Positions 4,545 through 55,981 of a DNA stretch of 64,000 bases are shown here, piece after piece. The first letter of the stretch is position 1. Every line of letters begins with the position of its first letter. The notes below the pieces were generated by a model. The model had not been told where the DNA came from, ran no database searches, and saw nothing but the letters and a program-made list of their open reading frames with translations. A program made the translations under genes and the position numbers. Source of the stretch: Chloroflexota bacterium (GTDB taxonomy: Bacteria > Chloroflexota > Anaerolineae > JAAEKA01); contig JAKQCW010000150.1 in assembly GCA_029558955.1 (NCBI GenBank), forward strand, positions 18,079 to 82,078. The letters are read 5' to 3'.

Positions 4545-4620
4545 GGTGTGCGTGGCACAAATGCGTAATTCGTAACCCGGAGCGTGTGAGGATGGCAATT
4601 GTCTCCGGGTTACGGATTAC
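4545..4620. repeat. CGTAAC-type palindromic repeat (family A) copy.
   Basis: gcgtaattcgtaacccgg ... ccgggttacggattacgggttacgc forms an inverted repeat. The same motif family occurs at 7786..7828, 27900..28088 and 40300..40400. Confidence 0.5.
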
Positions 4621-4623
4621 GGG

Positions 4624-5550
4624 TTACGCATGATCGAACACCGGCGTGTTCCACGACCGATAGCGTTCCACGTTGCCGCGCACGACGTCGAAGTAGAGGT
4701 TGCGGATGGCGTTGGTGATGGGCCCCATGACTCCCGCGCCCACCGGCCGGCGGTCGACGGCGGTGATGGAGGCAACCTGGACGCCGGTGCCGCAGAAGAA
4801 GAGCTCATCGCAGACGTAGAGCTCGGTGCGGTCGATCTCCCGTTCTTCGACGCGGATCCCCAGGTCGGCCGCGGCCAACTCCATGACGGTGCGCCGGGTG
4901 ATCCCCTCCAGGATGTTGGCCGACACCGGCGGCGTGATCAGTTGGCCATCGCGCACCATGAAGATGTTGGCCGCGCTGCCCTCCGAGGCGTGGCCATACT
5001 CGTCGAGCACGATGGCTTCGTCGTAGCCGTCCATCAATGCCTCAGACTTGACCAGGCTGGAGTTGACGTAGGCGCCGGCGATCTTGCCGCGGGCGGGGAT
5101 GGCGTTGTCGTCCACCCGGCGCCAGGAAGAGACGCACACCGATGCGCCCTCCTCGTTGGCCACGTAGCGGCCAAAGGGGGTGGCAAAGATGGTGACCTCG
5201 TCGATCATGTCGTGCAACAGCACGCCGATCTTGTGATCTGCCTTGTAGGCCAGCGGCCGCACGTACATGTCGTTGCGCTGCCCCTCGCACCTGAGCAGCT
5301 CCACCACGGCAGCGCGCAGTTGCTCGGCGCTGTAGGGCAGGTTCATCAACAGCAGGCTGGCTGAGCTCAGGAAACGCTTGATGTGATCCTCCAGCCGGAA
5401 GATGTAGAGCTGCTCCTGCTGTTCGTTCCAGTAGGCGCGGATGCCGCCGAAGCAGGCAGTGCCGTAGTGCAGCGCGTGGGTCATCACGCTGACTTTGGCT
5501 TGCTCGATGGGCACGATCTGGCCCTGAAAGAAGGCGTAGTTGGTTTGCAT
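4624..5550 (-). CDS. ilvE: Branched-chain amino acid aminotransferase.
   Basis: The 308-aa translation has the class IV aminotransferase pattern (..LHYGTACFGGIRAY.., ..EGSAANIFMV.., ..ITRRTVMELA..). Confidence 0.9.
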   Translation of the reverse strand: MQTNYAFFQGQIVPIEQAKVSVMTHALHYGTACFGGIRAYWNEQQEQLYIFRLEDHIKRFLSSASLLLMNLPYSAEQLRAAVVELLRCEGQRNDMYVRPLAYKADHKIGVLLHDMIDEVTIFATPFGRYVANEEGASVCVSSWRRVDDNAIPARGKIAGAYVNSSLVKSEALMDGYDEAIVLDEYGHASEGSAANIFMVRDGQLITPPVSANILEGITRRTVMELAAADLGIRVEEREIDRTELYVCDELFFCGTGVQVASITAVDRRPVGAGVMGPITNAIRNLYFDVVRGNVERYRSWNTPVFDHA

Positions 5551-5603
5551 GGGAGACCTGGATTTGGGGAATGGTTAATGGGGAATTGGGGAATGGTGAA
5601 CGG

Positions 5604-6398
5604 TTAATGGTTAATGGCTAATGGGGGGTGCGGGGTGGGAAGGGCGACCCAGGACTGGAGGGTGGCCATGAAGCTGTGGGCGGTCATGTCCATGCTGAGC
5701 GGGGTGATGGAGATGTAGCCGTGGGCGACGGCGCCGATGTCGGTGCCATCTTCGATCACGCCGCTGGGCGGCTCGCCGCCGATCCAGTAGTAGGGCTGGC
5801 CTTTGGGGTCGGTCCGCCCGATCAACACATCGCGGTAGACGCGCTGGCCCAGACGGGTGACGACGACGCCCTGCACCTCAGCGCTGGGAATGGGGGGCGC
5901 GTTGACGTTGAAGAGCAGGTTGGGCGGCAGGCCGTTGGCCAGGATCAGCCGGGCCAGGTGCGCCACCGCGGCGGTGACCGCGGCGAAATCGGACCACTCG
6001 CGCGCGTCCAGCGAGACCGCGATGGCCGGCACGCCGCCCACCACCGCCTCCATCGCGCCGGCCACCGTGCCGCTGTAGGTGATGTCGTGGCCCAGGTTGC
6101 CGCCCTGGTTGATGCCTGAGACCACCAGGTCCGGCGGGTCAGGGATGGCGCCCAGCAGGGCCAGTCCGACGCAGTCCGAGGGCGCGCCGTTGGTGGTGTA
6201 GGCTGACGAGCCGTCGGCCAGCGTCACCTGGTTGATGCGCAGCGGCTTGTGCATGGTCTTGCTGTGGCCGGCCGCGCTCCAGTTGCGGTCAGGCGCAAAG
6301 ACCGTCACCTGGCCCACCGCCTCCAGCGCCTGTTTCAACGCCAGCAGGCCGGGCGAGTATACACCGTCGTCGTTGGTGATTAAGATATGTGCAGGCAT
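5604..6398 (-). CDS. surE: 5'/3'-nucleotidase SurE.
   Basis: It has the N-terminal MPAHILITNDDGVYSPGL motif typical of SurE, and is 264 aa. Confidence 0.9.
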   Translation of the reverse strand: MPAHILITNDDGVYSPGLLALKQALEAVGQVTVFAPDRNWSAAGHSKTMHKPLRINQVTLADGSSAYTTNGAPSDCVGLALLGAIPDPPDLVVSGINQGGNLGHDITYSGTVAGAMEAVVGGVPAIAVSLDAREWSDFAAVTAAVAHLARLILANGLPPNLLFNVNAPPIPSAEVQGVVVTRLGQRVYRDVLIGRTDPKGQPYYWIGGEPPSGVIEDGTDIGAVAHGYISITPLSMDMTAHSFMATLQSWVALPTPHPPLAINH

Positions 6399-7744: not shown

Positions 7745-8110
7745 GCGTGACGTGTTACGTGTTGCGCGCATGGGTCGTTGGGAGTCGTGATGCGTAACAC
7801 GTAACTCGTAACTCGTAACACGTAACCGGAATTGCGGGCGATGGCTGTGCGCATGTTGCGCGTTGTCCATGCCGGGTCCCGCAATCCGGAGTCGAGGCTT
7901 CAGCCGGGTCTGGCGAAAAGCCGGCTAAAGCCTCGACTCCTATCTGGCCGCAACCGGATCCCGCAGCCAGAGTCGAGGCTTCAGCCGGGTCTGGCGAAAA
8001 GCCGGCTAAAGCCTCGACTCCTATCTGGCCGCAGCCGGGTTTCGCAGCCGGAGTCGAGGCTTCAGCCGGGTCGGGCGAAAAGCCGGCTAAAGCCTCGACT
8101 CCTATCCGCC
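7745..8110. repeat. Composite intercistronic repeat block. It has family A CGTAAC hairpins (7786..7828) plus three copies of the 53-nt family B hairpin (7888..7940, 7970..8021, 8050..8102).
   Basis: The B unit is GGAGTCGAGGCTTCAGCCGGG-TCTGGCGAAAA-GCCGGCTAAAGCCTCGACTCC, with an approximately 20-bp stem. It is repeated 3 times with spacers of about 28 nt. It creates the spurious ORFs 7755..8804 (-) and 7832..8968 (+). Confidence 0.75.
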
Positions 8111-26413: not shown

Positions 26414-27883
26414 TCAGGCCCACGAGCTGGCGCCCTCGCGCGGCTGCGCCTGGCGGAATTTGGGGAAGAGGCCGGCGTTCAGCGCCACCTTGGCCGCGGC
26501 GTTGATCGGCTTGATCTTAGCCACCTGGTAGACGCGGCGTCCCCACTGCGGCCCGAAGTATTTGATGAACTTGCGCTGCTCTTTGGCATCCTGGAAGCGC
26601 TCGCGCGCCTGCAGGGCCATGCCGCTCAGCGTCTCATTGCTCACCTCAGAGACGTTCATGAAGGGCGCGATCTCAGCGGCGTAGTTGTTGTAGTAGTAGG
26701 TCTTGGTGAAGTCGGCGTTGTAGGCCATGCCGGGGTTGCGCAGCACCAGCTCGTTCCACAGCGCCGTGCCGGGGAAGGGGGTGGCGATGGAGAACATGGC
26801 CTCGGTCAGCTCCAGGCTGGAGGCGAACTCGATAGTCTCCTGCATGGTCGCTTCGTCATCGCCGGGCAGGCCCAGGATGAAGTAGCCCTTGGAGCGAATG
26901 CCCGCTTCCTCGGTCCACCGGATCGCGTCGCGCACCTGCTGCAGGTTGATGTGCTTGGAGGTGCGCCGCAGCACATCCTCGTTGCCGCTCTCGATGCCGT
27001 AGTGGATCTGGCGACAGCCGGCGCGATACATCTTCTTCAGCAGCTCCTGCGAGATGCGGTCGACCCGCGCCAAGCAGCGCCAGCGGTAGTCCAGCTTCTG
27101 CTCGATGAAGTAGTCGAGAATCTTCTCCAGCCGCTTGACGTCGATGGTGAAGAGGTCGTCGATGAAGTAGAAGTTGCGGACGTTGTAGGTCTGGGAAACC
27201 TGCTGCAGCTCAGCCACGATGTTCTCAGGGCTGCGCTGGTGATAGGAGCGGCCGACGATGCCCTTGAAGCAGAAGGAGCAGTTGTAGGGACAGCCGCGGC
27301 TGCTGAGGATCGTCAGCATGGTCTCGCCGTTGGGCGCGTAAAGGGGGTACTTGTCCAGCTCGTAGAGGTGGCGCGCCGGGTTGGGCAGCGCATCCAGATC
27401 CTCGATCGGCTTGCGGCTGCCGCCGCGGATGATGCGGCCATCTTCCTTGTACCACAGCCCCTGGATCTGATCCCAGCGGTGATCGCCCGATTCCCAGGCG
27501 CGCAAAAAGTCCTGGAAGATGTACTCCCCTTCGCCGTAGGCCAGGTAGTCGATGTGGGGATTGGCCAGCGTGCTGTCGGGCAGCGAGGTGGCGTGGGGGC
27601 CGCCGATGATCACCGGCGCGCCCAGGGCCTCTTTCAGCAGGGCCACCAACTGCTCCACATAGTGATACGAGGTGGTCATCGATGTGAACGCGATGATGTC
27701 GGGTTTGAAGTCGATCACCTGCTGCGCGTCCTGCTCGATGGGCTGGGACGGATAGAGGCCGAAGTCGTGGATGCGCACATCGTGCCCATCCTGCTCGGCG
27801 ATGCCCGCCAAATAGCCCAGCCCCAACAGGGGGTAGCTGTTGATCATTTCGTTCCACTTGGGGCCGATCAGGGAGATTCTCAT
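26414..27883 (-). CDS. Cobalamin-binding (class B) radical SAM enzyme.
   Basis: MRISLIGPK... B12 domain. Motif ..[14 protein letters not shown]... Confidence 0.85.
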   Translation of the reverse strand: MRISLIGPKWNEMINSYPLLGLGYLAGIAEQDGHDVRIHDFGLYPSQPIEQDAQQVIDFKPDIIAFTSMTTSYHYVEQLVALLKEALGAPVIIGGPHATSLPDSTLANPHIDYLAYGEGEYIFQDFLRAWESGDHRWDQIQGLWYKEDGRIIRGGSRKPIEDLDALPNPARHLYELDKYPLYAPNGETMLTILSSRGCPYNCSFCFKGIVGRSYHQRSPENIVAELQQVSQTYNVRNFYFIDDLFTIDVKRLEKILDYFIEQKLDYRWRCLARVDRISQELLKKMYRAGCRQIHYGIESGNEDVLRRTSKHINLQQVRDAIRWTEEAGIRSKGYFILGLPGDDEATMQETIEFASSLELTEAMFSIATPFPGTALWNELVLRNPGMAYNADFTKTYYYNNYAAEIAPFMNVSEVSNETLSGMALQARERFQDAKEQRKFIKYFGPQWGRRVYQVAKIKPINAAAKVALNAGLFPKFRQAQPREGASSWA

Positions 27884-27899
27884 GGTGTTTTTCCGTGGG

Positions 27900-28088
27900 G
27901 ATGATGCGTAGTACGTAATGCGTAACTCGTAATGCGTAACCGGAATGGCGGGCTTTGGCTGCGGTGGCGAGCGTTCCGGGTTACGGGTTACGTGTTACGA
28001 GTTACTCATCACGCACGCGCAACCGGAACAAAAAGCCCTCGTCGCCAGCCAAACATTCCGGGTTACGAGTTACGCATTACGTGTTACG
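27900..28088. repeat. Family A CGTAAC palindromic repeat cluster between rSAM genes.
   Basis: cgtaatgcgtaactcgtaatgcgtaaccgg ... ccgggttacgggttacgtgttacgagttac forms a long inverted repeat. A second copy (ccgggttacgagttacgcattacgtgttacg) follows. It is the only sizeable intergenic gap inside the rSAM cluster. Confidence 0.6.
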
Positions 28089-28089
28089 A

Positions 28090-39209: not shown

Positions 39210-40307
39210 ATGTCCGAGATCATGATCGAAAATGTCACCAAACGTTTCGGCAACTTCACAGCGGTGGACAACGTCTCGCTGACTGTCGCCAACCAGGAGT
39301 TCATGGTGCTGCTGGGCCCCAGCGGTTGCGGCAAGACCACCCTGTTGCGCGCCATCGCCGGACTGGGCATGCCCGACGATGGCCGCATCAGCATCGGCGG
39401 GCACGATGTGACCTACCTGGCCCCGCGCGACCGGCACATCTCCATGGTTTTCCAGAGCTATGCCATCTTCCCGCACATGGACGTCTTCGACAACATCGCC
39501 TTTGGACTGAAGATGCAGAAGATGGGCAAAGCCGAGATCCAGGAGCGCGTCAAGCAGGCGGCCGAAATGATGCACATCGAGCAGATGCTGGATCGTTTTC
39601 CCTCCAAGATGAGCGGCGGCCAGCGCCAGCGAGTGGCCGTGGCGCGCGCCATCGCCATGCAGGCCCAGGTATTGCTGATGGACGAGCCGCTGAGCAACCT
39701 GGATGCGCTGCTGCGGCTGGAGATGCGGGCCGAATTGAAACGGCTGCTGGCAGAGCTGGGCGCCACGACCATCTACGTCACCCACGACCAGATCGAGGCC
39801 ATGAGCATGGGCGACCGCATCGCGGTGATGCGCGCCGGCATCATCGAACAGGTGAGCAGTCCCACCACGATCTATGATTTTCCGGCCAACCAGTTCATCG
39901 GCGGCTTCATCGGCACGCCGCCCATGAATTTCCTCCACGGCCAGATGCAGCGCCAGAACGGCCACAGCGTGGTGCGCATCGGCGAGTTCGACCTGACGCC
40001 CCAGCCGCTGATGCAGCCGCTGTTGGCCTCCTACGACGGCAAGCCCATCGTGGTCGGCATCCGCGCTGAGAACATGGAGACGCTGTCCAGCCCGGCCGAG
40101 GGTGCGCTGCGCGCCAGCGTGCTGGTGGTCGAGCCGCTGGGTTCGCAGAATCTCCTGACGGTCAAACTGGGTGACAGCCAGATGAAAGTCTCTACCCACC
40201 CTGATTTCACCACGCAGCCCGACGCCGATGTCTGGCTTCGTTTCCCAGCCGACAAGATCCGCTGGATCGATCCGGACACGAAGCGGGCGTTGTATCCGAA
40301 TGCGTGA
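39210..40307 (+). CDS. Sugar ABC transporter ATP-binding protein (MalK/UgpC-like).
   Basis: It has Walker A GPSGCGKTT, LSGGQRQRVAVARA, LLMDEP and a C-terminal TOBE domain. RBS AAGGAGA. Confidence 0.9.
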   Translation: MSEIMIENVTKRFGNFTAVDNVSLTVANQEFMVLLGPSGCGKTTLLRAIAGLGMPDDGRISIGGHDVTYLAPRDRHISMVFQSYAIFPHMDVFDNIAFGLKMQKMGKAEIQERVKQAAEMMHIEQMLDRFPSKMSGGQRQRVAVARAIAMQAQVLLMDEPLSNLDALLRLEMRAELKRLLAELGATTIYVTHDQIEAMSMGDRIAVMRAGIIEQVSSPTTIYDFPANQFIGGFIGTPPMNFLHGQMQRQNGHSVVRIGEFDLTPQPLMQPLLASYDGKPIVVGIRAENMETLSSPAEGALRASVLVVEPLGSQNLLTVKLGDSQMKVSTHPDFTTQPDADVWLRFPADKIRWIDPDTKRALYPNA

Positions 40308-40400
40308 CGAGTAATGCGTAACCCGTAACCCGGAATAGCCTCCCGCTTGCGCTCACTTCGGGTTACGCATTACCTGGTACGAGTTACGGGTTAAGACCCT
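40300..40400. repeat. Family A CGTAAC palindromic repeat.
   Basis: acgagtaatgcgtaacccgtaacccgg ... cgggttacgcattacctggtacgagttacgggtta. Confidence 0.5.
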
Positions 40401-46222: not shown

Positions 46223-47092
46223 ATGCCCCATCCTGTCATCTTCACGGATATCGACGGCACGCTGCTGGATCTGGAGACCTATAGCCATGCGGCCAGTGCG
46301 GATGCAGCGGCGCGGCTGGTGGCGGCCGGCGTGCCGGTGGTGCTGTGCTCATCCAAAACCCGGGCGGAGCAGGAGCCGCTGCGGGCAGCGCTGGGCATTC
46401 CTGATCCGTTCATCGTCGAAAACGGCAGCGCGATCATCGCGCCGCCGGGCTACTTCGAGTTTGACCTGGACGCCGTTGGATGCGCGCCGGATCGGGCCGG
46501 CGAGCTGGCCTTGGGCGTCGAGGCAGCCGTCATCCGCCGGGCGCTGGTCGAGATCCGCCGCACGACGGGGCTGGCGCTGGTGGGCTACGCCGACCTGAGC
46601 GATGAGGAGGTGGCCGCCGTGACCGGCCTCGCCGTGACCGCAGCCCACCTCGCCCGCCAGCGGGACTACAGCGAGACCATCGTCAGCCCGCTGGCGCCGG
46701 CCGAGTTGGCAGCGTTGCGCGCCGCGCTGGCGGCGCGCGGGCTGGCTGTGGCCCATGGCGGCCGCTTCTACACCGTCAGCGGCGCAGCCAGCGACAAAGG
46801 CGTGGCCGTGCGACGGTGTACCCAGTTGCTGCGCCGCCAGTTGGGCGAGATCTTCACCATCGGCGTCGGCGACAGCGCCAACGATCTGCCCCTGCTGGCC
46901 GCAGTGGATCGTCCCTGTCTGGTGCGGCGTCCGGTCGGCGATTGGTGCGACGCGGGCGAATTGCCGGTGACGCGGCTCTCCGGCGTCGGCCCGCTGGGCT
47001 GGTGCGAGCTGGCCGAGGAAGTGTTGGCGCTGCATTCTCGTCCTGACCTTCGTCTCCAGCAAGAGAAAGAGCGTGCGGTGGTAGCATGGTGA
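46223..47092 (+). CDS. HAD-IIB phosphatase, mannosyl-3-phosphoglycerate phosphatase (MpgP/YedP)-like.
   Basis: It has HAD motif I FTDIDGTLLD and motif IV GDSANDLPLL. Confidence 0.7.
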   Translation: MPHPVIFTDIDGTLLDLETYSHAASADAAARLVAAGVPVVLCSSKTRAEQEPLRAALGIPDPFIVENGSAIIAPPGYFEFDLDAVGCAPDRAGELALGVEAAVIRRALVEIRRTTGLALVGYADLSDEEVAAVTGLAVTAAHLARQRDYSETIVSPLAPAELAALRAALAARGLAVAHGGRFYTVSGAASDKGVAVRRCTQLLRRQLGEIFTIGVGDSANDLPLLAAVDRPCLVRRPVGDWCDAGELPVTRLSGVGPLGWCELAEEVLALHSRPDLRLQQEKERAVVAW

Positions 47093-48846
47093 GTCCCGAA
47101 GAGCGTATTCAGCATTGGTTGGCATTTCTGTATGGCGCCGAACCTATGGCCGCGTTGTGGTCGAGCCTGGACGCCTTGCTGGCAGGTTTCAGGGCGCAGA
47201 TGGCGCGGGCCGGATCATGGGCGCCGCGCACCTTGCCAGGGCTAAGCCAGGAAGACGCCATCCTGATCACCTATGGGGACCAGATCAGCGAGCCGGGTGG
47301 TGCGACTCCGCCGCTGCGCACGCTCGCCCGGTTTCTGGATGCCGAGCTGGCCGGCAGCATCAGCGGCGTGCATATCCTGCCCTGCTTCCCCTACTCCTCC
47401 GACGACGGCTTCTCGGTGATCGACTATACACAGATTGACCCGGCGCTGGGCGATTGGGCCGACGTGGCGCGGCTGGGCGCGCGCTACCGGCTGATGTTCG
47501 ACTTCGTGGCCAACCACATCTCGCAGCACAGCGCCTGGTTCCAGGCCTACCGGCGCGGCGAGGCGCCTTATCACGGGTTCTTCATCGAAGTCGATCCGGC
47601 CGTCGATCTGTCGCAGGTGGTGCGGCCGCGCGCGCTGCCGCTCTTGACGGCGGTGGAGACCACGCGTGGGCCGCGCCACGTCTGGACCACCTTCAGCGCC
47701 GACCAGATCGACCTCGACTACGCCAATCCGGCCGTGCTGCTGACCATGACCGGGGTGTTGCTGCACTACGTGGCCCACGGCGCGGAGATCATCCGCCTGG
47801 ACGCCGTCGCCTACCTGTGGAAGCAGGTCGGCGCCTCCTGCATCCACCTGCCGCAGGCCCACGCTGTGATCAAGCTGTGGCGGGCCGTTCTGGACGCGGT
47901 CGCGCCGCATGTGCTGTTGATCACCGAGACCAACGTGCCCCACGCCGACAACATCAGCTACTTCGGCCAGACGCTGCCGGAGACCCGCGCCACCGACGAA
48001 GCACAACTGGTCTACAACTTCTCCCTGGCGCCGCTGACGCTGCACGCCCTGCTGACCGGCGACGCCGGCAAGCTGTCGGCCTGGGCCGCGACGCTGCAAG
48101 CGCCGGCTGGCGGCAGCTTTTTCAACTTCATCGCCTCCCACGACGGTATCGGCGTGCTGCCGGCGCGCGATATCCTGAGCGACGGCGAACTGCACACGCT
48201 GGTCGAGCGGACTCTGGCCCACGGCGGCCAGGTCAGCGTGCGCAGCCTGCCCGACGGCTCCCACACTCCCTACGAACTGAACATCACGCTGTACGACTTC
48301 CTCAATCGGCCGGGTCGGGCCGAGCTTGCGACCGACATCGCCCGCTTCCTGGCTTCGCAAGCCATTCTCTTGGCGCTGGCAGGCGTGCCGGGCATCTATG
48401 TTCACAGCCTGTTTGGCTCGCCCAACTGCCACGACTGCTTCGCCGAGACCGGACGGGCGCGTTCGCTCAACCGCAAAAAGTGGACCCTGGCTGAGCTGCG
48501 CCGTCTGCTGGCCGAGCCCCATGGCCAGGCGCGCCGCGTGTTCGATGGCTACCGGCGACTGCTCCACCTGCGCCGCGCCCAGCCGGCCTTTCATCCGGCC
48601 AGCAGCCAGCAGGTGTTGTATGGCGACCCGGCGCTTTTTACCCTGCTGCGCGGGGCTGAGCTGGAGAGGCCGCTGCTGTGCAGCGTCAATGTGTCGGACC
48701 GGCCGGCCACTCTGCGCCTCGACGCCGCCAGCCTGCCCGGCCGCGCCTGGCGCGATCTGCTCAGCGGGGAGGAATTTGTCGCGGCCGGTGCATATCTGAC
48801 TGCGCCGATGGATCTGTACCAGATCCGATGGCTGACGGTTGCGTAG
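47086..48846 (+). CDS. GH13_18 sucrose-phosphorylase-family glycoside phosphorylase (sucrose / glucosylglycerate / glucosylglycerol phosphorylase-like).
   Basis: It has ..FDFVANHIS.., ..IIRLDAVAY.., ..ITETN.. and ..ASHDGIGV.. motifs. The start overlaps the upstream stop. Confidence 0.7.
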   Translation: MVSPEERIQHWLAFLYGAEPMAALWSSLDALLAGFRAQMARAGSWAPRTLPGLSQEDAILITYGDQISEPGGATPPLRTLARFLDAELAGSISGVHILPCFPYSSDDGFSVIDYTQIDPALGDWADVARLGARYRLMFDFVANHISQHSAWFQAYRRGEAPYHGFFIEVDPAVDLSQVVRPRALPLLTAVETTRGPRHVWTTFSADQIDLDYANPAVLLTMTGVLLHYVAHGAEIIRLDAVAYLWKQVGASCIHLPQAHAVIKLWRAVLDAVAPHVLLITETNVPHADNISYFGQTLPETRATDEAQLVYNFSLAPLTLHALLTGDAGKLSAWAATLQAPAGGSFFNFIASHDGIGVLPARDILSDGELHTLVERTLAHGGQVSVRSLPDGSHTPYELNITLYDFLNRPGRAELATDIARFLASQAILLALAGVPGIYVHSLFGSPNCHDCFAETGRARSLNRKKWTLAELRRLLAEPHGQARRVFDGYRRLLHLRRAQPAFHPASSQQVLYGDPALFTLLRGAELERPLLCSVNVSDRPATLRLDAASLPGRAWRDLLSGEEFVAAGAYLTAPMDLYQIRWLTVA

Positions 48847-49889: not shown

Positions 49890-50080
49890 CAAACGGCGCT
49901 TCCAGATCTGGGCGGAGCCGAGGCTACGGGGTCAGCAGGGCAAGGGTGTTTGCGCGGCGCTTCCAAACATGGGCGGAGTCGAGGCTTCAGCCGGGTCTGG
50001 CATGGGCGGAGTCGAGGCTTCAGCCGGGTCTGGCCGAGGTGTTTCGAGCACTGACCGCCTGAAGGCTCGACTCCGTGTCC
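49890..50080. repeat. Family B (GGAGTCGAGGCTTCAGCCGGG) repeat copies: two direct left arms plus one right arm.
   Basis: gggcggagtcgaggcttcagccgggtctggc occurs twice, then gcctgaaggctcgactccg. Confidence 0.6.
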
Positions 50081-50121
50081 CAGGCCTGTTGACATGCGAA
50101 TTGCTGCGCTCGCCTGTCTCC

Positions 50122-50361
50122 TCACGGCAGCGCATAGCAGGCGCCGGCGTTGGACATGACGTAGGGGCAGCCGTTGACGTGGCCGCAGACCGTGCAGTCG
50201 ATGGCCGCGCGGTCCTCGATGCGCTCCAGCCGGCCCATGCGCACCAGCTCGGCCAGCATCCCCTCCAGCACCGCCGGCTCCAGGTCGAGCTGCGCGGCCA
50301 GCAGGTCCACGCTGAGCGGGCCGGGGGCGTTGCCAAAAAGAGTTAGGAGTTGACGTAACAT
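50122..50361 (-). CDS. feoC: FeoC-like ferrous iron transport regulator (winged helix plus Cys cluster). It is possibly extended N-terminally through the heptad repeat to 50715.
   Basis: Sequence: MLRQLLTLFGNAPGPLSVDLLAAQLDLEPAVLEGMLAELVRMGRLERIEDRAAIDCTVCGHVNGCPYVMSNAGACYALP. It has a wHTH plus a C..C....C......C cluster, like FeoC/YhgG, and lies downstream of feoB. Confidence 0.6.
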   Translation of the reverse strand: MLRQLLTLFGNAPGPLSVDLLAAQLDLEPAVLEGMLAELVRMGRLERIEDRAAIDCTVCGHVNGCPYVMSNAGACYALP

Positions 50362-50365
50362 TGTG

Positions 50366-50770
50366 GTCGGTGGTCGGTGGTCGGTGAACGGTGAACGGTG
50401 AACGGTGAACGGTGGTCGGTGGTCGGTGGTCGGTGAACGGTGGTCGGTGGTCGGTGAACGGTGGTCGGTGAACGGTGAACGGTGAACGGTGAACGGTGAA
50501 CGGTGAACGGTGGTCGGTGGTCGGTGAACGGTGAACGGTGGTCGGTGGTCGGTGAACGGTGGTCGGTGAACGGTGAACGGTGGCCGGTGAACGGTGGTCG
50601 GTGAACGGTGAACGGTGGCCGGTGGTCGGTGAACGGTGAACTGTGAATGGTGAATGGCAAACTGCGAATAGTGAACGGTCATCGGTGCAGCGATCACCCT
50701 CCGTTTACCGTTCACCGTTCACCGTTTACCCTCCGCTTACCGTTCACCGTTCACCGTTTACCCTCCACCG
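50366..50770. repeat. Heptanucleotide microsatellite (GGTGAAC/GGTGGTC)n of about 40 units, followed by inverted (GTTCACC)n copies.
   Basis: The direct 7-bp repeats run from 50366 to about 50650. Reverse-complement copies (ccgttcaccgttcaccgtttaccc) lie at 50700..50770. The region is stop-free on the minus strand in all frames, giving HRPPFTV-type translations. Confidence 0.9.
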
Positions 50771-50771
50771 T

Positions 50772-52943
50772 TCACCCTCCGAACAGCCACCCAGCCACCC
50801 GGTAAGTCACGAAACCGGTGATCCAGGCCAGCGCCAGCAGGTAGGTGAAGCTGAAGGCCATCCATTTGCCGCCGAATTCGGCCTTCAGCGCGCCCATGGC
50901 AGCGATGCAGGGGGCGTAGAGCAGCACGAAGACCAGAAAGGCCAGCGCGGACGCGGGGGTGAAATGGGTTTGCAGCGCCTGGCTGAGGGCCGTGTCGGTC
51001 TGGGGCGGTTCATCTCCCATCAGGTCGACGCCGGGGATCATGCTCAACACGATGCGCGCCGAGTCGACTACCGCCTGGCCAAAGCCGACCACGATGCCGC
51101 GCACGTCCGCGGCCAGATCCACCGGCTCAGGCGGCTCGTCCGGCGCGTCTCCCAGGTAGATCACGGCCATGCTGCTGATCACCACCTCCTTGGCCACCAG
51201 TCCCGTGACCAGCGAGCCCGCGGCTTGCCAATTGCCAAAGCCCAGCGGCTCGAAGGCGGGAGCGATCGCGCCGGCCAGCCGGCCAAAGACGCTCTCCTCA
51301 GTGCTGGCCACCCCCACCGGCAGGTTGAGCAGCGCCCAGACGGTGACGGAGGCGGCCAGGATCAGCGTGGCCGCCTTGTGTACGAATTCCGCGCTGTGCC
51401 GCCACATGTGGGTGCGCAGGCCGCGCCAGGCCGGCAGGCGATAGGGGGGCAACTCCAACACGAAGAGCGAATCGGTGGTCTTGCCGAAAAGGGTGCGGCG
51501 CATCAGCAGGCCGGTCAGCACAGCCAGCGCGATGCCCAGCAGGTAGAGCCCAAAGATCACCGCGCTGGCGTGCCGGGGGAAGAAGGCCGCGGCGAAGATC
51601 ACGTAGACCGGCAGGCGGGCCGCACAGCTCATCAGCGGCACCATCAGCCCGGTCAGAATGCGGTCACGGCGGTTTTCCAGCGTGCGGGTGGCCAGAATGC
51701 CGGGCACGTTGCAGCCAAAGCCGACGATCAGCGGGATGAAGCTCTTGCCGTGCAGTCCCAGCAGGTGCATCAGCTTGTCCATGACGAACGCTGCCCGCGC
51801 CATGTAGCCGCTGTCCTCCAGCAGCGCCAGGCAGAGATAGAGAATCAGCAACACCGGCAGGAAGACCAACACCCCGCCCACGCCGGCCATCACCCCATCG
51901 ACCAGCAGCGAGGTCAGCCAGGCCGGCGCGGCCACGGCGCTCAAGGCGGCCGCGACCCAGTTGGCCAGCACACCGTTGACGGTGGCATCGATCCAGTCCA
52001 CAAAGGGGGCGGAGGCGTCGGCGGTCAGCTTGAAGACCAGCGCCATCAGCCCGAAAAAGATGGGCAGACCCAGCACGCGGTGGGCGGCGATGTCGTCGAT
52101 GCGGTCGGTCAGGCTGCGCGGGCGATGTCCGCCGTGGCGCTTGACCACCTGATGGGCCAGGCCGTGCACGAAGCCATAGCGGCGGTCGGCCACCAGCAGC
52201 TCCACGTCGTCGCCGTAGACAGCCTGGACGCGGGCCGCGGCCTCCTCAGCCTGCTGGCGCAGCGCCGCGGCCTGCGGCGTGTCGCCCAGCGCCTGTGCGA
52301 CCAGCCGATCTCCTTCCAGCAGCTTGAGCGTGGTATAGCGCGGCGTGTCGCTGGCGATCAGCGCGCCGAGCTGCGGCTGCAAGGCGGCGATCTCCGCTTC
52401 CAGCTCGTTCCCGTAGTCGATCAGGTTGGGGTGTGACGCGGCCTCGGTCACGGCCAGGCCGACCAGGTCCATCAGCCCCTGGCGACGGGTGCCCACCGTG
52501 GGAACCACCGGCACGCCCAGCAGCCGGGCCAGCAGTTCCACGTCGATGGCGATCCCCTCGGCTTCGGCGCGGTCCATCATGTTCAACGCCAGCGTCACCG
52601 GCGCGCCCAGCTCCAGCACCTGCGCGGCCAGGTAGAGGTTGCGCTCCAGGTTGGTGGCGTCGGCGACGACGATGGCTGCATCGGGCCGCTGCTCCAGGAT
52701 GAAATCGCGCGCGATGACCTCCTCCGGCGAGTGCGCGCTGAGGCTGTACGTGCCGGGCAGGTCGACCAGCGTCACCGCCTGGCCGTTCCAGCGCACGACG
52801 CCCGACGCGACCTCCACCGTCTTGCCGGGCCAGTTGCCCACATGTTGTCTGCCCCCGGTCAGGGTGTTGAAGATGGTGCTTTTGCCGGCGTTGGGGTTGC
52901 CTGCCAGAACCACCACCGGCGAGGTGTCTGCTTTACCGGCCAT
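50772..52943 (-). CDS. feoB: Ferrous iron transport protein B.
   Basis: It has N-terminal G-protein motifs ([13 protein letters not shown]) plus a polytopic membrane domain, and is 723 aa. Confidence 0.95.
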
Positions 52944-53265
52944 GAGTACCGCCGTAGAGCCAACGCAGCCAGCGCGGGCAGCGGCTGGCCTGCTGGGAAT
53001 CGCAGCCCTCTTCGGCTGGCTGATCGCAGTCTGCGCAGGGCAGCCGCTGGATCATGACCTGGCTGGCCTCGCTGCGCCGCAGGGAGAGTCGATAGCCCTT
53101 GACCATGTACTCCACCGGGTCGCCCAGCGGCGCCACACGCACCACGCTGATCTCTGCGCCGGGCACCAGGCCCATGTCCAGCAGACGTTTGCGCAGGGTC
53201 GCTCCGCCGTGTACAGACTGAATGGCCGCGCGCTGCATGGGGAGAAGGGCTGTCAGTTGTTCCAT
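52933..53265 (-). CDS. feoA: FeoA-domain protein with a Cys-rich C-terminal extension.
   Basis: The start is at [16 protein letters not shown] with the RBS AGGAG. The FeoA SH3-like core is followed by [24 protein letters not shown]. It overlaps the feoB start by 11 nt. Confidence 0.7.
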
Positions 53266-53535
53266 ATTTAGGTACTCCTGTAGAAATTCGGTCGAATTCT
53301 TTAGCCAGATCATAACATGGATTGTGCAAAATGGAATATGATCTGGGTCAGGTTTTGTCGCTATTTTTTCGCTCGCCGAGATGTGACGGCGCGTGCCTTG
53401 TCAGGATTAGCCTTGTCATCCTCCTCTCTGACCGGGCGGCTGTTGAAATTGCTGTCGGAGGTGTTTGACAGAACGCCAAGAAACAGGTATCCTCACCTCC
53501 ACGCAAGTTTCATATTTCACTCAGGAGTCTTCCCC

Positions 53536-54067: not shown

Positions 54068-55977
54068 ATGTGGCATACCTACTACCAACCGACAACGTTG
54101 TCTGAGGCGCTGGCCCTGCTCAGCCAGCACGGCCAGGAGGCGCGCGTCATCGCCGGCGGCACCGATCTGGTCATCGAGCTGGAACGGGGCGTGCGCAGCC
54201 AGCACATCCTGATCGACATCACGCGAATTCCGGGGCTGGACGGCATCGAGCTGGGGCCTGCTGCTGCGGTTCAGACGGGTCTCGATACGGCGCAGACGCC
54301 TACTCGACCGACGGATGTTGGGCCGGCGCAGACGGGTCTCGATACGGCGCAGACGCCTACTCGACCCACGGATGACTGGCCGGCGCATACGGGTCTCGAT
54401 ACGGCGCAGACGCCTACTCGACCCACGGATGATTGGCCGGCGGGGGAGGAGATCACCCTCGGCCCGCTGGTGACGCACAACGACGTGGCCGCGTCGGCGC
54501 TGCTGGTGGAACGGGTTTTCCCCTTGGCCCAGGCCTGCTGGGAGGTGGGCGCGCCGCAGATTCGCAACCGCGGCACCGTGGCCGGCAATCTGATCACCGC
54601 CAGCCCGGCCAACGACACCATCACCCCGCTGTGGGCGCTGGATGGCGCGGTGACGCTGGCCAGCGCGCAGCGCGGGGAGCGGCGGTTGACCTTCGACCAG
54701 TTCTATCTGGGGGTGCGCCGCACGGCCATGCAGCCGGACGAGATGTTGACGGCGATCCACCTGCGCGCCCTGCCGGCCAACGCCCGCGGCGTGTTCATCA
54801 AGCTGGGCCTGCGCCGCGCCCAGGCCATCTCGCTGGTCAACGTCGCGGTGGTGCTGGAATTCGCCCAACCGCCGCTCGGGCCGGTCTCTGACCGTGCCCG
54901 CGTCGTCCACGCCCAACCGCCGCTCGGGCCGGTCTCTGACCGTGCCCGCGTCGCCCACGCTCAACCGCCGCTCGGGCCGGTCTCCGACCGTGCCCGCGTC
55001 GCCCACGCTCAACCGCCGCTCGGGCCGGTCTCTGACCGTGCCCGCGTCGCCCACGCCCAACCGCCGCTCGGGCCGGTCTCCGACCGTGCCCGCGTCGCCC
55101 GCGTCCGCATCGCCCTGGGCGCCGTCGCGCCCACCATCGTGCGCGCCGAGGCGGCCGAGGCCAGCCTGCTGGACCAGCCGTTGAGCGACGCGGCCATCGC
55201 CCGCGCCGCCGACCTGGCCATGCAGGCCGCCCGCCCCATCGATGATCTGCGCGCCAGCGCCGGCTATCGCCGCGCCATGGTCGGCGTCCTGGTGGAGCGC
55301 GCCCTGCGCCAACTGCGCAGCGGCACGGAGCGCGCCGGCTTCCCGGCCGATCCCGTTCTGCTCAGGACCACGGCGAGCCCGCACTATTCCGGCGTCGAGC
55401 TGCCGGTTACGGGGCGCGGCGCAGCCATCCCGTTGACGCTCAACCATCGCTCGATCGCCCTTGACCACGCCGCCGGCAAGACTCTCCTGCGCGCCCTGCG
55501 CGAAGATGGCCACATGACCGGCGTCAAGGAGGGCTGCGCCGAAGGAGAGTGCGGCGCCTGCACCGTCTGGCTGGACGGCAAGGCGGTGATGGCCTGTCTG
55601 GTGCCGGCGGAGCGGGCCGCGGGGTGTGAGGTGGTGACGGTGGAAGGGCTGGCGCAGCAGGGGTCTCGATACGGCGCAGACGCCTACTCGACCCACGATG
55701 ATTCGCCCGGCGCGGAGGGGTCTCGATACGGCGCAGACGCCTACTCGACCCACGATGATTCGCCCGGCGGGTTGCACCCGCTGCAGGCTGCGTTTGTGGC
55801 TGAGGGCGCGGTGCAGTGCGGCTATTGCACCCCCGGCCTGCTCATGTCCGGCGCGATGTTGCTGGAGGAGCGCCCCCAGCCCACGATGGCCGAGATCCAG
55901 CAGGCGCTGGCCGGCAACCTCTGCCGCTGCACCGGCTATGCCAAGGTGGCGGCGGCGATCGAGAAGGCAGGTAGATC

Positions 55978-55981
<4 letters not shown>
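54068..55981 (+). CDS. Molybdenum hydroxylase (xanthine dehydrogenase / aerobic CODH family) fused FAD-binding (CoxM/XdhB-like) plus 2Fe-2S (CoxS-like) subunit. It carries three in-frame tandem-repeat insertions.
   Basis: The FAD domain is marked by ..[12 protein letters not shown].. and ..[11 protein letters not shown]... The ferredoxin part is marked by ..[13 protein letters not shown].. and ..[14 protein letters not shown]... Repeat-encoded inserts are [13 protein letters not shown] x3 (54272..54440), [16 protein letters not shown] x5 (54863..55102) and [17 protein letters not shown] x2 (55662..55768). Confidence 0.8.
54863..55102 (+). repeat. Five tandem 48-nt intragenic repeats, encoding [16 protein letters not shown] x5 in-frame.
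   Basis: The unit gcccaaccgccgctcgggccggtctc(t/c)gaccgtgcccgcgtcg(t/c)ccac occurs 5 times head-to-tail inside the CoxM/S-like CDS. Confidence 0.85.

Follow-up and report, generated by a model that had tools for sequence, protein, structure and literature searches.

A non-coding, length-variable heptanucleotide repeat between feoB and feoC of an Anaerolineae bacterium that may tune FeoC at the RNA level

The iron-uptake genes feoB and feoC of a Chloroflexota bacterium (Anaerolineae; GenBank assembly GCA_029558955.1) are separated by a long array of 7-nt repeats with inverted copies beside it, and this arrangement raises the question of whether the array is part of a protein, a regulatory element or a by-product of slippage. 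The analysis concerns a stretch of 64,000 nucleotides with a G+C content of about 65% (contig JAKQCW010000150.1, positions 18,079 to 82,078; hereafter the window, whose first letter is position 1). We document here the anatomy of the array, its non-coding character, its length variation between assemblies, its origin in place and its predicted folding. It is very probably a non-coding, length-variable heptamer repeat that arose where it stands. As an explanation of the whole, we lean towards a slippage-prone, intercistronic heptanucleotide simple sequence repeat (SSR) that grew from a small stem-loop and tunes FeoC at the RNA level. Bacterial repeats of this kind are already known, and the array is a large one among them.

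In the window, 410 nt lie between the stop codon of feoB (50772..52943, minus strand) and the ATG of feoC (50122..50361, minus strand). Read in the sense of the mRNA, the region begins with a G-rich 5′ arm (50694..50780, minus strand) of about 12 heptads, GGAGGGU, GGUGAAC and GGUAAAC, which also form a 32-nt super-repeat of 2.2 copies. There follows a loop of about 52 nt (50642..50693, minus strand), made up of unique sequence and decayed units (…GAUCGCUGCACCGAUGACCGUUCACUAUUCGCAGUUUGCCAUUCACCAUUCACA), and then a C-rich array of 40 heptanucleotide units (50362..50641, minus strand), mostly GUUCACC, GACCACC and GGCCACC. On the plus strand, positions 50362-50641 comprise 40 heptamers in perfect register, namely 22 GGTGAAC, 15 GGTGGTC, 2 GGTGGCC and 1 TGTGGTC; the heptamers then decay up to about position 50690, and inverted copies extend to 50776-50780. 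The last unit of the array, GACCACA, touches the feoC AUG, with 0 nt between them. In base content, the G arm has 46% G and 12% C, and the C-rich array 49% C and 15% G.

A preliminary description, made from the sequence of the window, had reported a direct heptamer array followed about 50 nt later by inverted copies, and this was confirmed by three measures. Tandem Repeats Finder (TRF) identified a period-7 array at 50382-50687 (43.7 copies, score 325) together with another of period 7 in the opposite sense at 50701-50776 (11.3 copies), which it scored as a 32 bp x2.2 repeat as well. The 14-mer GGTGAACGGTGAAC, with at most one mismatch, occurs 17 times in the window, every time at the feoB-feoC locus, against an expectation of 0.01. 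Lastly, the complementarity between inverted 47-nt arms reaches 87%. The locus thus holds a long heptanucleotide SSR, in that 7-nt copies stand head to tail far above chance at an intergenic, non-coding site.

The inverted tail starts inside feoB itself. The last two codons and the stop of that gene, GGA GGG TGA, followed by AC, constitute the first unit of the G arm, and the 32-nt block of the arm, GGAGGGUAAACGGUGAACGGUGAACGGUAAxC, closely matches GGAGGGUGAACGGUG, the terminus of feoB. Because of this near identity, we conclude that the G arm arose by local duplication. As for the loop, its 40-nt core occurs once in the window, and its 30-nt core matched a single contig in a scan of JGI metagenomes (Ga0209096_1007147, recorded twice, as L151 and L127), which is the feoB-feoC locus itself and brought no further allele.

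The number of units differs between assemblies of the same locus. Look-ups of exact proteins recovered this locus in at least 10 independent assemblies from JGI, ENA, NCBI and Logan, mostly short-read assemblies. The spacer is 375 nt long with 35 units in one of these (L125), 410 nt with 40 units in the window and in an ENA scaffold (L133), 438 nt with 44 units in L122/L131, and 473 nt with 49 units in two JGI samples (L121 and L123); in a further assembly (L124) it spans at least 538 nt, with the units unresolved across a gap of Ns. Among alleles with identical FeoB, the length differences are all multiples of 7, and the G arm, the loop and the flanks are identical. When the units are lettered (a, GTTCACC; b, GACCACC; c, GGCCACC), the alleles are seen to differ by block insertions or deletions of 5, 9 and 14 units. 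The array is where six contigs end and two begin, and two contigs from one sample (L125 and L134) differ in the order of their units. In sister strains, with FeoB identity of at least 90%, the array contains other unit variants (ATTCACC, GTTCACA and GCTCACC); three of these strains (L153-L155) have a different number of 32-nt blocks in the G arm, and their contigs all end in the array. Unit number is therefore polymorphic between close strains, with the caveat that attaches to short-read assemblies.

More distant relatives show how such an array may have started. The preliminary description had proposed a comparison of feoB-feoC spacers, and short arrays or complementary arms were indeed found in several relatives, but not in the closest. 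At 91% FeoC identity (L145/L146), the spacer is 42 nt long and contains just 2-3 decayed units. At 84% (L140-L142), a 39-nt spacer reads GGAGGGTGA-ATTGTACTGCC-GTTCACC GTTTACT GTTCACC GTTCACC-ATG. At 67% (L136), six units end in GTTCACC GACCACC-ATG, the first of which pair with GGGTAAGCGGTAACCGG at the feoB stop. At 72% (L148-L150), there is a G arm, GGGUGAAGAAUGGAGAG, a C arm, CUUCCUCUUCCCUCACC, and a poly-C tract; at 65% (L143), a different heptamer adopts the same layout, with (GACGGCR)x9, a loop, (GTCTGCC)x4, 22 nt and the ATG. At 61% (L137) there are no heptamers, and the junction has ordinary hairpins and a GAGGA Shine-Dalgarno (SD) sequence. At these junctions, unrelated sequences thus repeatedly provide a G-rich arm at the end of feoB and, ahead of the feoC AUG, a C-rich arm complementary to it; the very large array, in turn, expanded recently within this species group. 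The poly-C tract, located about 30 nt upstream of the feoC ATG, comprises 9, 10 or 6 residues in the three samples of the 72% relative, and is a second kind of length variation at the feoB-feoC junction.

We assessed the folding of the spacer as RNA. The predicted structure of the window spacer has a minimum free energy of -164.5 kcal/mol (z = -2.8), and z-scores of -2.2, -4.4 and -2.3 were obtained for the 67%, 65% and 72% relatives (L136, L143 and L148), respectively. The C-rich array alone is approximately unstructured, at -9.7 kcal/mol over 280 nt. In partition-function folds that include the upstream arm, 82-87% of the G arm is paired and 19-34 array units are unpaired; that is, around ten repeats are predicted to pair with a G-rich arm in an extended RNA hairpin. 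By the same kind of thermodynamic prediction, the 21 nt that precede the AUG are unpaired with a probability of 0.33-0.41 in synthetic arrays of 4-20 units and of 0.51-0.65 in the natural alleles of 35-49 units, their accessibility thus rising with unit number. The scan of positions 49900-51100 revealed neither a sigma-70-like promoter nor an intrinsic terminator, and the feo genes are co-directional. No Rfam family was found in a scan of the whole window at gathering thresholds. Of the earlier suggestion of a phase-variable, cruciform-forming spacer, length variation and hairpin formation are thus supported: unit number varies with identical FeoB and a long stem is predicted in the RNA. A switching of the FeoC frame itself is conjectural.

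By analogy, the closest mechanistic precedent is the hmw1A repeat of Haemophilus influenzae, whose RNA hairpin was described in December 2025 (PMC12721329). There, an (ATCTTTC)n tract is transcribed in the 5′ untranslated region (UTR), ten repeats pair with a G-rich arm, and the resulting long hairpin is cleaved by RNase III; more units lead to lower expression, and changes in unit number require transcription, folding and RNase III (PMC12721329). The hmw1A/hmw2A repeats and the feo array share a 7-nt unit, a pyrimidine-rich array upstream of the regulated start codon, a long imperfect hairpin in which about 10-12 units are paired to a G-rich arm while the surplus units remain outside the stem (predicted, in the case of feo), and a unit number that varies naturally. 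The feo array differs in that it touches the AUG, and in its target: hmw encodes a surface adhesin, whereas FeoC is a small cytoplasmic protein, in an environmental Anaerolineae host. RNase III cleavage and length-dependent expression have been shown for hmw, whereas the feo array is known from its sequence and its predicted folds.

On this basis, we propose the following sequence of events. The seed would have been a small stem-loop, in which the G-rich end of feoB (GGAGGGUGA…) paired with a C-rich feoC leader (…GUUCACC-AUG). The C-rich arm would then have expanded to 35-49 or more units, and the G-rich arm would have grown to about 12 units by 32-nt duplications of the feoB terminus. In the feoABC mRNA, the G arm and any set of about 12 array units may form an imperfect duplex of about 80 bp, leaving the remaining 19-34 C-rich, G-poor units single-stranded. 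The likely effect would be to uncouple FeoC synthesis from that of FeoB and to tune it at the RNA level, possibly through processing of the duplex by RNase III, through the accessibility of the start site or through loading of Rho on the C-rich tract. Gains and losses of units would create heritable, reversible differences between cells and strains, as in the 5′-UTR hairpin formed by the (AUCUUUC)n repeats of H. influenzae hmw. Taken by itself, the proposition that an RNA-level effect on FeoC expression is real, by whichever of an hmw-like hairpin, start-site access or Rho loading, is one that we put forward tentatively.

Several observations weigh against this mechanism. The arms stand in the opposite order from those of hmw, with the G-rich arm on the 5′ side and the repeats on the 3′ side, and the array lies between two cistrons of an operon rather than near a promoter. 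The 91% relative has no counterpart of the large array, so feo function does not depend on one. The full spacer folds with a modest z-score, and the spacers of the 84% and 91% relatives show no significant structure (z of -0.1 for L141 and +0.2 for L145). Some of the allele differences could reflect the path that a short-read assembler took: a single traversal of a 9-unit block, bordered by 63 nt of identity, separates the alleles of 40 and 49 units, and an assembler using a small k-mer could mis-resolve them; the k141 contigs and the single sample with two variants argue for real heterogeneity. Finally, we infer every functional step, from co-transcription through any processing to any effect on the level of FeoC.

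The main rival explanation, which we consider unlikely on balance, is that the array is a neutral by-product, in which slippage expands heptamer tracts from a short seed in dispensable intergenic DNA with no regulatory role. Heptamers are indeed reported as the most abundant class of long SSR in many bacteria, and are attributed to polymerase slippage, in the passages of PMC4679880 and PMC4692102 that cite Mrazek 2007. The lack of the array in the closest relative, the free drift of unit number and unit order between strains, and the presence of other heptamer arrays filling several intergenic spacers of the window would all be expected from such a process. Against it, lineages with unrelated arm sequences repeatedly show a complementary pair of G-rich and C-rich arms at this junction, and the array always ends at or near the feoC ATG. 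A third argument comes from a scan for (GGTGAAC)x3 with one genome per species, which returned at least 120 loci (L001-L120; examples are L010, L011, L016, L035, L046, L060, L043 and L116) from many phyla. Among the matches listed, an inverted partner lies within 250 nt in 41 of the 115 arrays that are far enough from the locus ends, and the G arm comes first in 35 of these pairs and the C arm in 6 (binomial p = 5e-6), a bias across phyla that slippage alone does not predict.

Gemmatimonadales metagenome-assembled genomes (MAGs) dominate these listed matches, which also include Chloroflexota, Proteobacteria, Bacteroidota and Acidobacteriota. In the C-rich sense, 25 of 108 listed arrays are followed within about 42 nt by the ATG of an open reading frame (ORF) with 100 codons or more, versus 10 of 108 in the control direction (p = 0.009, with a crude ORF rule). 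Many of the listed arrays are found at contig ends, and the same loci hold many other heptamer families as pairs of array and inverse array, among them GACTAAC, GGTCGTA, GGAGATT and AATGCAC. A BLASTN comparison of the window with the 120 loci from other genomes gave one weak match, 69% over 370 nt; these loci have nothing but the repeat motif in common with it, and none is a relative. We found no literature specific to this motif, or to heptamer repeats in Anaerolineae or Gemmatimonadetes.

A more far-reaching version of the RNA-level proposal, which we regard as speculative and rather improbable, is that G-arm-first heptamer-array hairpins are a cross-phylum class of self-expanding, intercistronic RNA regulators. 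These would be hmw-like in duplex processing and in transcription-dependent length change, and their unpaired C-rich, G-poor tail would serve as a tunable platform for Rho loading or ribosome standby. The excess of G-first pairs among the listed matches would then reflect selection to mask C-rich RNA during transcription. Were the feo array to tune FeoC, it would be a stochastic, heritable length switch on an accessory regulator of iron uptake in a non-pathogenic, uncultured bacterium, while length switches of this kind have mostly been studied in host-adapted pathogens; it would also extend the hmw-type RNA hairpin, a heptamer repeat plus a G-rich arm, to an intercistronic setting and to other phyla.

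Comparable arrays are known at gene junctions elsewhere. In Xanthomonas, GGGAATC repeats number about 185 per genome, with up to 26 units, are about 90% intergenic and include 70-75 convergent plus/minus pairs; their G-rich sense lies 0-50 bp after stops on the coding strand and 0-50 bp upstream of starts on the non-coding strand (PMC4692102). In Nostoc, the GGGGAYT heptamer repeats include one inside an operon, between pecE and pecF (PMC4692102). Like the feo array, these are intergenic heptamer arrays of variable length, with convergent pairs able to form stem-loops (PMC4692102), and the geometry is the same, with the G-rich sense just after stops and the C-rich sense just before starts. They differ in the unit sequence, as the feo unit is devoid of G3-G4 runs; in size, the 40-49 feo units being compared with a reported maximum of 26 (PMC4692102); and in symmetry, as the feo arms are strongly unequal, at about 12 versus 40 units. 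The TAACTGA sets of Beggiatoaceae are mostly forward, comprise 2-6 copies and end about 1 nt before start codons (PMC4679880), to be compared with 0 nt before the feoC ATG. In the parts of PMC4692102 and PMC4679880 that deal with them, the cyanobacterial STRR heptanucleotide repeats (Calothrix) and the TAACTGA repeats likewise appear as tandem intergenic heptamers; as portrayed there, they are short, with one motif dispersed genome-wide and rarely inverted, whereas the feo locus is one very long array with an inverted partner.

A coding function of the array is highly improbable. In this model, which the preliminary description had entertained as a His/Pro-rich N-terminal extension of FeoC, translation would begin at a GTG at 50715 or an ATG at 50682 and proceed through (VHRSPFT/DHRPPTT)n, to be turned on and off by 7-nt steps. 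The codon at 50715 had been given as ATG but is GTG, and the first in-frame ATG is that at 50682. In favor of the model, none of the frames of the mRNA-sense strand is interrupted within the array, the candidate starts have GGAGGG motifs 14-15 nt ahead of them, and the upstream GTG and ATG are in frame with FeoC in the alleles of 40 and 49 units; moreover, some gene callers predict a fused product of 207 residues in two assemblies (L121 and L123). The starts are out of frame, however, in the alleles of 35 and 44 units, the spacing of the GGAGGG motifs is poor for an SD sequence, and no start codon precedes the array in the relatives that carry 4-6 units. The open frames are an automatic outcome of the unit sequence itself, whose reverse sense has TGA in every frame. 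The statement that the minus strand is stop-free in every frame holds inside the array, but not for the inverted tail, where stops occur in all frames (50696-50774).

The composition of the array and the conservation of FeoC lead to the same view. Whichever of the three frames is read, the 118 codons of the extension have a G+C content at third positions (GC3) of 0.59-0.63, as against 0.89 in feoB and feoC, and 0.80-0.93 in 35 long ORFs of the window. All 21 of 21 FeoC homologues (57-91% identity) share the position of their first residue, opening with MLRQ, MLKH or MLRL, and vary in length at the C-terminus only. Position 15 of the Pfam FeoC profile aligns with residue 16 of the 79-residue protein, so the N-terminus is complete in this shorter form. 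No SD sequence precedes the ATG at 50361, but many genes of the window likewise follow C-rich contexts (aacacc-, accacc-, ccaccc- and tctcccc-ATG), and its absence is therefore normal here. As SD-less, C-rich start contexts are common in the window, we dropped the missing SD as an argument for an upstream start. These sequence data support the view that the array is non-coding and that FeoC is probably translated from its own ATG at 50361; the extension originally envisaged is thus not supported, in view of the homologue N-termini, the Pfam alignment, GC3 and the allele frames, and the fused 207-residue FeoC is regarded as an annotation artefact. Intragenic contingency loci, such as the tetranucleotide repeats of H. 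influenzae lic, reside inside the coding sequence, after the true start codon. They resemble the feo array in that the unit length is not a multiple of three and unit-number alleles shift the frame, but the feo repeat stands before the conserved FeoC start and has a non-coding composition; it is not located within an ORF after a functional start. In practical terms, the array breaks short-read assemblies, many contigs ending there, and misleads gene callers (the 207-residue FeoC of two assemblies), so heptamer arrays at gene junctions are to be reckoned with when such genomes are annotated and binned.

It is also very unlikely that the array acts at the DNA level, through iteron-like sites for a regulator, a cruciform, or a two-tetrad G-quadruplex (G4) on the antisense (GGTGGTC)n strand, so as to affect transcription or replication. 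The arms could extrude as a cruciform, and a role as G4 elements has been considered for G-rich heptamers that lie upstream of ORFs on the non-coding strand (PMC4692102). The units have GG runs only, however, and would make a weak G4; 40 or more binding sites are implausible; and what is conserved between lineages is the complementarity of the arms, not the unit sequence. The heptamer, moreover, does not appear to resemble the consensus boxes of Fur, DtxR/IdeR and LexA, and we count the Fur and DtxR/IdeR part of this comparison against an action on DNA.

To a mobile palindrome of the MITE or REP type, inserted as arm, loop and arm between feoB and feoC, we give almost no credence. In its favor, the terminal arms are inverted and enclose a unique core, the window has another palindromic family with heptamer arms (NCGTAAC arms and CCGGAA core, at 4 sites or more), and the large array is absent from the 91% relative. 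These points are outweighed by a G arm that begins inside feoB and duplicates its terminus, by the shorter runs of these units that occupy this site in the 84% and 67% relatives, by flanks on which no target-site duplication was seen on reading, no systematic search having been made, and by a loop that is single-copy in the window and matched this locus alone in the JGI metagenome scan, which argues against a mobile element. REP, BIME and REPIN elements are intergenic palindromes that form hairpins, occur commonly inside operons and may have roles in the stability or processing of mRNA; REPs are dispersed copies of one palindrome of about 20-40 nt, mobilized by RAYT transposases. The feo array shares with them its intercistronic position and a predicted hairpin, but it is a local tandem array with a single-copy loop, and within the window and the JGI metagenome scan its core and arms are not dispersed at many loci in the manner of REP, REPIN or MITE elements.

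The genes around the array form a predicted feoABC operon, of which feoA is the first gene (52933..53313, minus strand; Pfam FeoA, 78 bits, E 5e-22); its product is called as 110 or 126 residues in other assemblies. FeoB has 723 residues, with the Pfam domains FeoB_N, FeoB_Cyto, Gate and FeoB_C found on an identical protein, which NCBI names 'ferrous iron transport protein B [Anaerolineae bacterium]' (MAG). FeoC, encoded downstream of feoA and feoB, is a winged-helix protein of 79 residues with four C-terminal cysteines, and its domain is above the Pfam gathering threshold (PF09012; 29.7 bits versus a cut-off of 21, E 7e-7, residues 16-62). The identical protein is annotated by NCBI as a 79-residue 'FeoC-like transcriptional regulator' in Anaerolineae bacterium MAGs. 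The four cysteines (…DCTVCGHVNGCPYVMSNAGAC…, window 50122-50200) are kept in most homologues, and recall the Fe-S-binding wing of enterobacterial FeoC.

Heptamer arrays fill other spacers of the window as well. They are found at 4606-4628, between two co-directional genes; at 7793-7826, after a stop codon; at 27880-28092, starting at a gene's stop codon and reaching to 22 nt short of the next ATG; and at 40300-40400, between a stop codon and a start codon. A mixed array at 5560-5626 ends about 15 nt before the ATG of a minus-strand gene (4624-5550); in the sense of that strand it reads AUUAGCC AUUAACC AUUAACC GUUCACC AUUCCCC …, with one GTTCACC unit. Another heptamer family consists of a CCGGAA…TTCCGG core flanked by (NCGTAAC)n and by the inverse of this array, (GTTACGN)n (4590-4640, 7760-7830, 27880-28092 and 40300-40400). 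This family occupies at least four gene junctions, from the stop codon to just before the next start codon, and looks like a dispersed palindromic element with heptamer-array arms.

Repeats of other kinds occur in the window too. The 18-nt core GGAGTCGAGGCTTCAGCC has 19 copies, versus 0.09 expected, at 7888-8102, 31440-31616, 49975-50074 and 63186-63277; it forms tandem arrays with periods of 27, 33, 37 and 81 nt, together with inverted copies, and one cluster, with an inverted copy, is directly downstream of feoC. The gene for the FAD-binding/Fer2 subunit of a xanthine-dehydrogenase-like enzyme (54068-55981) contains in-frame tandem repeats of 57 and 48 nt, at 54272-54442, 54862-55100 and 55651-55769. 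Its called product has 485, 598, 617 or 637 residues across assemblies of the same locus, and because of these differences in length we regard the repeats as a coding-region variable-number tandem repeat. A gene of the alpha-amylase family (47086-48846) encodes 586 residues in the window and in most assemblies, and 566 residues in two NCBI MAGs (loci compared: L124, L132 and L135).

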